DNA of 64,000 bases from Isurus oxyrinchus. Its lineage: Eukaryota. The translations under genes were made by a program, and so were the position numbers. Where the stretch lies: NCBI GenBank assembly GCA_026770705.1, contig JANJGN010000007.1, positions 96,844,001 through 96,908,000 on the forward strand, given 5' to 3'. The notes beneath the pieces are model-generated. The model did no database searches. It saw only the letters and a list, made by a program, of their open reading frames with translations, and was not told the origin of the DNA. Below, piece by piece: positions 6,673 to 14,827 of the stretch (the stretch's first letter is position 1; each line of letters opens with the position of its first letter).

Positions 6673-7858
6673 GCACTCACCTCCCAGGGTGAAATGCGAC
6701 ATGCTGAGATATGGTGAAGGTGGCTTGGCGCAATCATAGTTTGAATGTCTAAATCCCGAAACTAGTGTGCACTACTATTGTTTCGAAATAGTTTAAAGGC
6801 AGTTTTAAGAAAAAATCAAACACTGCACTGTAGATTCTATGCTCCAAACTATTCTTGTCAGTTGAGATGGCGATCGATGACGACAAAACGTAAAACATCC
6901 TTAAGATCTGATCTCAACGCATCCTATTTCAAGGTACTTCTATCATTTAAATATTAACCCAATCTCATCAATGAATTACTGGTTCTTGCGGTGGTTTTGC
7001 ACCCTGATATGAGCCAACTGTTCTCAGAGATATTATTGAAACGAGTTCATTTGAATTGTAAATTCATGCAATTAGGCTTTTGGCTGCGTTACATCTAACT
7101 CTGCAAACAGAAAAATCGTTTCTCACGTTGCATCACAGAATCGCAGATAACCTTGAAATACGTAATTTCTCATAAACTGAGAAAGGTTTGTCGTATTAAA
7201 TAGTTAAATATGTGTAATAGGTAATTGTGAGTAAGGAAGCCGGAATTAAACAGTTTCACTTCGTGTAAATCGTTGTTTGTTTACAAAGTAGCAGAAACGC
7301 ACATCAACAAAAATGTACTCACATACATTTTCCCACAGGTTCATCAGTTTCATGCAATTTGATTAAAAATTCTGCATAACTGCCTAATAAGGGATATTGC
7401 GGAAAGATAAACCTATTTACTCTTTCCTCTGTTGCGTAGTCTTAAACTCGCTTTCCTGAGCAAATTTATCAAGGCGGTCCAGGCAAATTCTCTTCTCTTC
7501 CAAAGTTGCACAGCTTCTTGCGGAACCTGGCAGTTGAAATCCAGCAAAATATTATGCGAATTCTGCGTAAATATTGTATGGAGACTTTTTAAATGAATCG
7601 ATCTCTTATTAATTCCAAAAGTTCTTAATATTGACATAATTAAACAGGCCAGAATTTTCCAGCTGACTTGAAGACATCGCAGCCCTCACGTCTGCGCATA
7701 AAATGACGCGCGCAAACGTCGCGCGAAGCGTGTCGACGTCAAAGCGCACCATCTGGATATTTCGGTGGGCGGGCGCGCTCAGTTCGCCCGCCATTAATTG
7801 AACGGCTCGTTAAGGCCCTTAACTTGCCAATTGTGTATGATTTTGAGGGGCATGTGAG

Positions 7859-8170
7859 ATGTCGAGCAGAGGGAAAGGCGGAATGGGGCTGGGCAAAGGC
7901 GGAGCCAAGCGGCACCGCAAAGTCCTTCGCAATAACATCCAGGGCATCACCAAGCCGGCCATCCGGCGCCGGGCCCGCTGCGGGGGCGTCAAACCCATCT
8001 CCGGCCTCATCTACGAGTAGGTCCGCGGAGTCCTGAAGGTTTTCTTGGAAAATGTTATCAGGGACTCGGTCACCTACACTGAACACGCCAAGCGCAAGAC
8101 GGTGACGGCTATGGATGTGGTCTACGCCCTGAAGCGCCAGGGGCGGACCGTGTATGGCTTCAGTGGTTGA
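7859..8170 (+). pseudogene. H4: Histone H4 pseudogene (full-length 104-codon frame, premature stop)
   Basis: [105 protein letters not shown] at 8018-20; no indels; no histone 3' stem-loop. Confidence 0.97.
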
Positions 8171-12912: not shown

Positions 12913-14827
12913 GGCGCAATGCCTCAGGCAGGCCTACTGGCCAATCATCATGCAGGCTGCCGGTTCCCCATTGGAACCGGCAGTCTGAGGCCGCCCGCCC
13001 CCACGACTGTTTTCCCCGTTTTCCGAGGGAATCGCTTACCTGCGCACCGGGCCTTAACTGGCCCGCTTGCGGAAAACGGAGGAGCGGCATTTGGCTGCCC
13101 GACCGCCGCCGAGTTGAACGAGCGTAAAATTTTGGCCACAGTGTGTGGTGAGAAACCCGTCCCAATTTTACTTGAAATTTACATTGCACCAATGCACATT
13201 CAGGCTTCACTGTAACGTTGAAAGATGCTGTGATCACTAAATGTGGCATTTCAACGGCATATGTCTTTTTATGAACAGTGAAATTCAGTGACATATTGGA
13301 AACGTTGTTTTCGGAAACGCTGTTACAGGCGTCACATGTGGCTTTTTATGAGAATCACAAGAAATCATGATCAAATCTAATCTTTGTCGTTGTTCCATAT
13401 CTTGTTTCGAATATTTGAGAATTGAACTGACTTCTAAATCTGGGGATGTTATTTATTTGTTGGAAACAAGTTCCAAAATTGAAATGCTTCCGCTGGCGCC
13501 TGGAAGGTGTAACCCATATGAAAAATAGATTCACGTTACACACATGAAATTGCCTGTATCTTTGAAAAACGTTAAATCATGTGTCATCCGAAGCTCTGTT
13601 TGAAAGACTCTGCGGAGATAGGCATATGAACTCCTGTCCACACGGACGCCAACCAAGTGGCGGCCACTGAGTGAAAAAATCCTGTCTGCTTTCGGCATCA
13701 CACAGATGATTACAATAAAGACACCTATGATTGAGGAGAACATATTTTTAATTTTGGAAAATAAAGCAAACTATATTGTTTCATGCGGAAAAAATGATAC
13801 TTAAAGGGTCCTATTTCAACATAATTCTGCATGGCATGACAGTTGCAATTTCATTTTCATTCTGTGGTTTGTTCCAAGAGTGATAAAATTGCTTTCTTGA
13901 GACATCTATCAAATTGAGTTTCTGTGGTTTCTCCATCATCATGTGCATATCCGTGGAAGTGAAATGTCCAAGTAATTAAATAATGAATTGAAGTAATCAT
14001 GAGCTATTGAACCCAAACTATTTGCTTTAGCCACTTAGTTTAAAGCATCATAAAGTGTAACTTTCAAAGCTGGTCTCCTTGTAATATCTCCACCTTCTGA
14101 AAACTTGAAATCTAATGCTTTCTTAGTTAAATTGCATTAATCGTGGACCTTAAATCAAAATTGGAAGGTTGTCGTGGAAGTTCCATCGATTTCCCAAAAT
14201 ATGAGTTTTTTTTCATGCCCATTCCTCTGCCTTATTTAAAGTACACCTGTGACAAGTTTGCAAAGCTTTGATTGAATTTTGAAAAACAAGCTTGCAGATC
14301 TAAACGCTTTCTTTTCAACTTAATCCACGGATAGAAGAATACTTCTCGTTAATAAATTAAATAAGATGCAAATATTTTATCACATGAAGGACGTATTTGT
14401 CAATATTGCCAACTCTTTGTAGATTACAGAACAAATCGCTTCCAGAAAAAATATAGTAAATAAATTTGAAGAAGATTGTTGTTGCGAATTTTACTGCTAT
14501 GGAGAACTCTGTTCTCGAATTGAAAATACACGATTGAAACTGTAAGTTTGGTGACATGAAATTCTGGACTTGAGGTTTTATACGTGTGTTTTTTTTTAGA
14601 ACTGAATTGGCCTTGCCTCGACGAAAGTGATGGAATGCAAACTGAGTAACTTAAAGCACTCGGCAGGCTACCTGGCCCTGGAACGTCCAAAGACATTCAG
14701 CCAGCCAATCTGTTTCGAAGTGGTGATGGATTCTGAGGAAGAGCAAGATAAATATCATAGTCCATTCCTCGGTGTCAACAATCCTCATGTATGCCCCAAC
14801 AAGGCAAATTATTGCAGAAAGGTGCGT

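Follow-up and report, generated by a model that had tools for sequence, protein, structure and literature searches.

A broken copy of a variant histone H4 gene, probably retrotransposed, inside a dead PIF/Harbinger element of the shark Isurus oxyrinchus

The stretch of DNA analysed here (the window) comprises 64,000 nucleotides of the Isurus oxyrinchus assembly GCA_026770705.1 (contig JANJGN010000007.1, positions 96,844,001 to 96,908,000, forward strand). PIF/Harbinger transposons are defined by short terminal inverted repeats (TIRs), a 3-bp target duplication, a DDE_Tnp_4 transposase and a Myb/SANT gene, and an element sharing all of these features, including the convergent orientation of the two genes, occupies positions 7647-13137. 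Its left TIR (7647..7660, plus strand) reads GGCCAGAATTTTCC, the same 14-mer that stands at both ends of the family consensus; the right one (13124..13137, minus strand), found by comparing the ends, reads GGCCAAAATTTTAC as its reverse complement. The two TIRs match at 12 of 14 positions, as against 14 of 14 in the consensus. The sequence ACA directly abuts the element on the left (7644..7646) and on the right (13138..13140), both on the plus strand. Two other family copies with both ends visible are flanked by ATG/ATG; in a third (L114) the flanking 3 bp do not match.

The transposase gene lies on the plus strand at 8456..9690, the end being approximate; tblastn covers 8456-9655 in three pieces across two frames with at least six stops, and Pfam DDE_Tnp_4 (PF13359) matches these pieces at 8992-9465 as well as family copy L122. 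On the minus strand, tblastn with the family-consensus reading frame locates a broken stretch at 9999..10960, which would be the last exon of the second (Myb/SANT) gene, and a further broken Myb/SANT exon at 12468..12890 with stops, a frameshift and a GC-rich expansion (about 12710-12830). The profile Myb_DNA-bind_5 (PF13873) finds this exon in its intact counterpart in family copy L124 (E 8e-5) but gives no match in the two broken window pieces alone. The preliminary description of this locus had called the element complete. Its outline, TIRs, ACA repeats and gene content stand, but both genes are broken, and the element is real but dead. It differs from the family consensus at 613 of 5,012 bases (12.2%), about twice as far as 11 other copies (5.3-9.0%), and its closest relative reaches 90% over 331 bp at best among the 40 of 2,998 candidates scored. 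Elsewhere in the window, two short stretches (4304-4429 and 6546-6625) match the right end of this Harbinger family and are perhaps non-autonomous derivatives.

Within this element lies a segment of histone H4. Its decayed coding part (7859..8170, plus strand) starts 212 bp inside the left end and stops 285 bp before the transposase ATG (8456), close to the distances first estimated, and is followed by 19 nt from the start of the 3' UTR of the source gene (8171..8189, plus strand), which end about 17 nt before the position of the stem-loop and carry no poly(A). GAGA is present at both junctions, as had been noticed. At the 5' junction (7856..7859, plus strand) empty sites read GGGGCCCGTG(T/C)GA and then, across the insertion point, ACTTC, so that this GAGA is an ambiguous target duplication of 0-4 bp or a microhomology, its last A being shared with the ATG. 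Microhomology to the RNA at the 3' junction, read by eye, amounts to 2-4 nt. No TATA box, poly(A) or Rfam Histone3 stem-loop was found in the insert, in agreement with the preliminary description. What that description had taken for a full 104-codon frame is interrupted by a TAG at 8018-8020 (codon 54, E53*), and eight further residues are changed relative to the source gene's protein, nine in all. Compared with the consensus of the young subfamily to which we return below, 12 of 312 nt differ (3.8%), nine of them non-synonymous and three synonymous (ratio 1.07); the idea of a stop-free frame under selection thus fails, and the window H4 copy is predicted to do nothing.

Two readings had been offered for this arrangement, a single insertion into this copy and a Harbinger subfamily that captured a histone gene and spread it as cargo. 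Pack-type transposons (Pack-MULEs) hold captured host gene sequence between their TIRs. Here, too, host gene sequence lies between TIRs, in sense orientation and upstream of the transposase, which would suit cargo; the proposed count of copies with and without H4 nonetheless decides for the single insertion. An exact pattern spanning the empty junction has 248 matches in the genome (a reversed control has none), and none of the 29 closest relatives fetched carries H4: the junction is contiguous and empty in 28 and the left part is missing in one. A genome search with 7647-8460, in which 40 of 4,049 candidates were scored, gave 16 other Harbinger loci: 15 join query positions 1-213 almost directly to 542-814, and the sixteenth had no left part among the matches listed. 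Counted from the histone side, a genome-wide exact H4 3' UTR pattern finds 27 loci (one source gene and 26 dispersed copies) and a 5' pattern 16, and a comparison of the flanks of 29 H4 copies with the Harbinger consensus places the window copy alone at this junction. The sole other Harbinger-like host, a 75%-identical element bearing copy L059, differs in insertion site and orientation, and that copy has its own 16-bp duplication. The proposed comparison of ages makes the H4, already interrupted by a stop, the younger partner (3.8% against 12.2% for its element, Fisher p=7e-7) and fits better with the element having come first and H4 later, although the 12%, in an element that has no close relative, may partly reflect a sister subfamily and so overstate its age. 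As a family outlier the element does leave room for a small unsampled subfamily, and the candidates scored were 40 of 2,998-4,049 in two genome searches. Even so, H4 as cargo of the Harbinger is refuted within this assembly, and we give almost no credence to a subfamily that captured and spread it. The insert differs from Pack-type cargo in that it was not amplified with the element and in that its bounds are those of an mRNA rather than of genomic DNA.

The single source is an intact gene (L005, G000:C21:115,680,752). Its frame is open, it has a TATA box, and Rfam Histone3 recognises a stem-loop whose stem lies at stop+37..+52; among five loci scanned it alone has both the TATA box and the Rfam match. 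No second intact source paralogue was found by the genome-wide patterns or in 240 kb of the surrounding cluster (115.42-115.58 Mb excluded). The protein of the source gene differs from canonical H4 at two residues, T54V and A69S, and the two genes differ at 2 non-synonymous and 40 synonymous codons. The window insert belongs to a family, dispersed over 18 contigs, whose 31 copies share the UTRs of this gene. The preliminary description, although it saw the insert itself, had overlooked this family and its single source gene together with the premature stop. Among the 27 copies scored at both codons, V54 is retained in 26 and S69 in 22; the losses are decay changes. We hold it to be highly probable that the window H4 is a broken copy of the variant gene, likely made by reverse transcription of its mRNA, which lacks poly(A), and inserted in a single event into a Harbinger that was likely already present.

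The ends of the copies bear on this directly. By BLAST end points, 26 of the 31 end at stop+15..+30, before the stem-loop, and the remaining five at +9, +11, +34, +57 and inside the coding region. The clustering is not due to ascertainment alone, since 10 of the 15 ends in the set recovered by the 5' pattern alone fall at +17..+28. The copy that reaches +57 (L066) ends 5 nt past the stem, where the end of the mature histone mRNA is expected. No TATA box or poly(A) was found among the 31; a run of A8 follows copy L044 and may belong to the target. Copying at the DNA level, in which a piece of the H4 gene would have entered the element by gap repair or ectopic recombination as in Pack-type capture, would agree with the short or absent duplication at the window copy, and the RNA step is unproven by intron or tail; as histone genes have no introns, intron loss cannot show it. 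Yet the 31 copies are all confined to about -34 to stop+57, with neither the TATA box nor any DNA from past the point where the mRNA should end, and such transcript-bounded ends largely refute DNA-level copying, which we consider very improbable.

As a family, the H4 copies qualify as tailless retropseudogenes. In Noll et al. 2015 (PMC5322556), 51 human tailless retropseudogenes derived from histones are reported, the class is found in therians and the anole only, and the species listed include no shark. The likeness lies in copies of 3'-truncated, non-polyadenylated RNA that lack oligo(A), in target duplications, and in a 3'-junction target complementary to the RNA. The human histone cases described there are 5'-truncated, whereas many of the shark copies reach the 5' UTR; the shark target also differs from the A-rich TT/WAAAAWW consensus given there, and the young shark copies, with short duplications or none, would fail the duplication filter of that study. 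The window copy itself shows no clear flanking duplication, its 0-4 bp being ambiguous. Neither tailless histone copies in sharks nor an H4 borne by a Harbinger was found described in our literature search, whose coverage of subscription journals was thin. A 2026 preprint counts 14,081 retrocopies in cartilaginous fishes (10.64898/2026.06.26.734816); the word 'histone' is absent from its main text, and its supplements may list these retrocopies.

Target duplications of 9-16 bp accompany 12 of the 31 copies. They are significant at 10-16 bp in 11 of the 29 scored, some with mismatches, and absent at that level in the other 18; the 9-bp duplication of L191, a copy whose truncation falls within the coding region at a microhomology of 5 nt, was read by eye. 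Several duplications begin with bases that match the RNA, and the 3'-junction microhomology in copies with duplications is short, read by eye and given here without a chance model. Two copies were inserted at GTGTGATT, at one and the same place in an unrelated repeat; this site resembles the GAGTGACTT of the RNA. A repeat of about 240 bp with ragged 3' ends (L170-L181, L007, L010; 1,531 initial candidates) holds two independent H4 insertions at one site. A shared LTR-like carrier was considered for L057 and L067, which have a 212-bp upstream repeat in common, and was rejected: the repeat is empty in 11 other copies, the two H4 junctions differ, and the insertions are independent. L011 (= L047) forms a young/old pair with L021 (= L053) in which an 80-bp upstream flank is common up to the junction and the downstream flank differs.

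These features suggest a mechanism in which a LINE reverse transcriptase would start at a nick in the target DNA, the first bases there pairing with the RNA immediately 5' of the stem-loop; such target-primed, internally primed copying would leave a tailless retropseudogene. Alternatively, the 3' ends may be true RNA ends, the templates having been histone mRNA decay intermediates trimmed through the stem-loop. The distance from stop to end is similar in three unrelated UTRs (variant H4, canonical H4 and variant H2B), as trimming would predict, but shielding of the stem-loop by its binding protein would set an equal 3' boundary. In human cells decay intermediates are reported to accumulate some 15 nt past the stop codon (PMC5066620), and most of our ends, at +19..+28, lie past that peak. 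L191, cut within its coding region at a microhomology and flanked by a duplication, also speaks against trimming, and Noll et al. favour internal priming (PMC5322556). We regard trimmed templates as somewhat unlikely and prefer internal priming.

The family falls into older and younger copies. In a tree the older branch before the younger ones and the source, many inner forks being unresolved. The source has changed six times since the young consensus, always synonymously; the old consensus differs at 19 synonymous and 4 non-synonymous codons, the latter all at CpG sites by reading. Most young copies share bases absent from today's source (6 synonymous and 2 UTR differences), so that they were copied from an earlier allele or from a paralogue since lost. 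Counted on private changes, dN/dS comes to 0.51 for the young copies (p=0.08) and 0.72 for the old ones (p=0.18), below 1 but not significantly; pooled values of 0.46/0.61 were confounded by the source's own synonymous changes and were replaced by these. Open frames persist in 10 of 27 scored copies. As to their 5' starts, 11 of 12 old copies begin at -25..-34 and the young ones at -17..+11 (the 5'-truncated L063 left out), a difference that a shifted source start site could explain as well as a change of mechanism.

Duplications of at least 10 bp occur in 8 of 12 old and 1 of 15 young copies (Fisher p=0.003; counts tallied by hand). Mobilisation by L1 machinery is a further mark of tailless retropseudogenes, and in the shark family the evidence bearing on it is duplication length. 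In PMC4245944, L2-type elements are reported to be stringent for their own RNA, and duplication lengths to peak at 13-15 bp (L1), 10-12 bp (RTE) and 3-5 bp (L2/CR1). The older copies, mostly with 10-16 bp, would then be L1/RTE-like, and the younger, the window copy included, with 0-6 bp, would be CR1/L2-like or the product of repair at a break; a change of mobilising element is one reading of the shift and break repair the other. Under the latter, the young copies would come from double-strand breaks that captured H4 cDNA or RNA through microhomology. The loss of long duplications itself could be read in this way, as could the short microhomologies at both junctions and copy L041 (= L002), in which H4 and the resumed host repeat are separated by some 50 extra nt, AT-rich and containing a short tandem repeat. 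Empty sites, on the other hand, show no large deletion and perhaps a short duplication (0-4 bp in the window copy, 5-6 bp in L057), such lengths fit the 3-5-bp L2/CR1 peak (PMC4245944), and the young 3' ends cluster like those of the long-duplication class. Break repair is in our judgement unlikely, and a LINE origin remains our reading of the young class; for the window copy, which has no clear long target duplication, that origin is inferred from its siblings.

The gene behind these copies is an H4 variant, a non-allelic gene with distinct residues that are conserved in sharks and skates. An identical protein is encoded on 23 contigs under the names Chiloscyllium punctatum, Rhincodon typus and 'Elasmobranchii', and both residues recur in three skate entries. 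Among the 135 proteins fetched the V54/S69 pair was also seen in a Theileria H4 and one unnamed entry, which implies that the substitutions are tolerated. Most matches of the protein search are fused or extended H4 models. H4 variants are described as infrequent in PMC8015243. The human H4.7 (H4G) treated there is likewise a non-canonical H4 within a histone cluster, but it is 85% identical, truncated and polyadenylated, and the shark variant is two residues off, keeps its stem-loop and is conserved across sharks and skates. No description of the shark variant was found in the same literature search, again thin on subscription journals, and it is apparently undescribed.

The variant is copied out of proportion to its gene number. 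By exact 3' patterns one variant gene accounts for 26 dispersed matches; canonical H4 yields 178, by a pattern that contains CpG sites and may undercount decayed copies. Of these, 100 were listed, at least seven standing singly on large contigs and 93 in three clusters, and the remaining 78 lie on C48 or later contigs. The stem-loop is absent from all seven dispersed canonical copies. No dispersed match was found for L023, an H4 gene next to the source. Germline expression is named as a main determinant of tailless copies (PMC5322556). Taken with that determinant, the excess suggests that expression of the source variant is germline-biased, and the apparently unnamed histone variant behind the retrocopies is probably a germline one.

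The source gene belongs to a cluster of divergent H1, H2A, H2B, H3 and H4 genes at C21:115.35-115.69 Mb, whose family labels were assigned by inspecting translations. The segments G000:C21:115.35-115.42 and 115.62-115.69 Mb (L068-L075, L231-L237) hold at least 20 stem-loop histone genes, many of them divergent, among which are several H1-like genes, at least three H2B types, three identical H2A copies and three non-canonical H4s; the H3 ends in DIHLARR followed by further residues, and parts of the cluster are duplicated in inverted order. An H2B variant of this cluster (L212, G000:C21:115,377,216) behaves like the H4 variant, having young, dispersed copies that lack the stem-loop. At least eight such loci exist; the eight fetched (among L213-L225) are 96-98% identical to L212 and end before or at the start of its stem-loop. 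The 13-member protein cluster of this variant carries names from sharks only. Two older dispersed copies (L210, L211) appear to derive from another H2B of the cluster (C21:115,626,472, minus strand), and a further H2B paralogue (L221, G000:C21:115,635,805) is frameshifted close to its end when compared with its twin L214, which marks it as a pseudogene or an assembly error.

Regarded as a transposon finding, the locus is unremarkable, one insert nested within a dead transposon. The lead worth following is the H4 variant behind the insert, conserved in sharks and skates, and its marked surplus of retrocopies per gene allows a germline role to be tested directly. Tailless histone retrocopies are extended beyond therians and a lizard, there is a hint that LINEs with short duplications can copy host RNA, and retrocopies with open frames can inflate the annotation of histone genes. 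We advance tentatively, at a little less than even confidence, the wider proposal that sharks and skates may possess, in one cluster, a conserved germline-biased set of variant nucleosome components (H4 T54V/A69S, the variant H2B and other divergent histones) whose stem-loop mRNAs would have been retrocopied without a break, early on by an L1/RTE-like reverse transcriptase that leaves long duplications and afterwards by a CR1/L2-like one, supposedly stringent, that leaves short ones. If this is true, the retrocopies would be a fossil record of the expression of their source gene.
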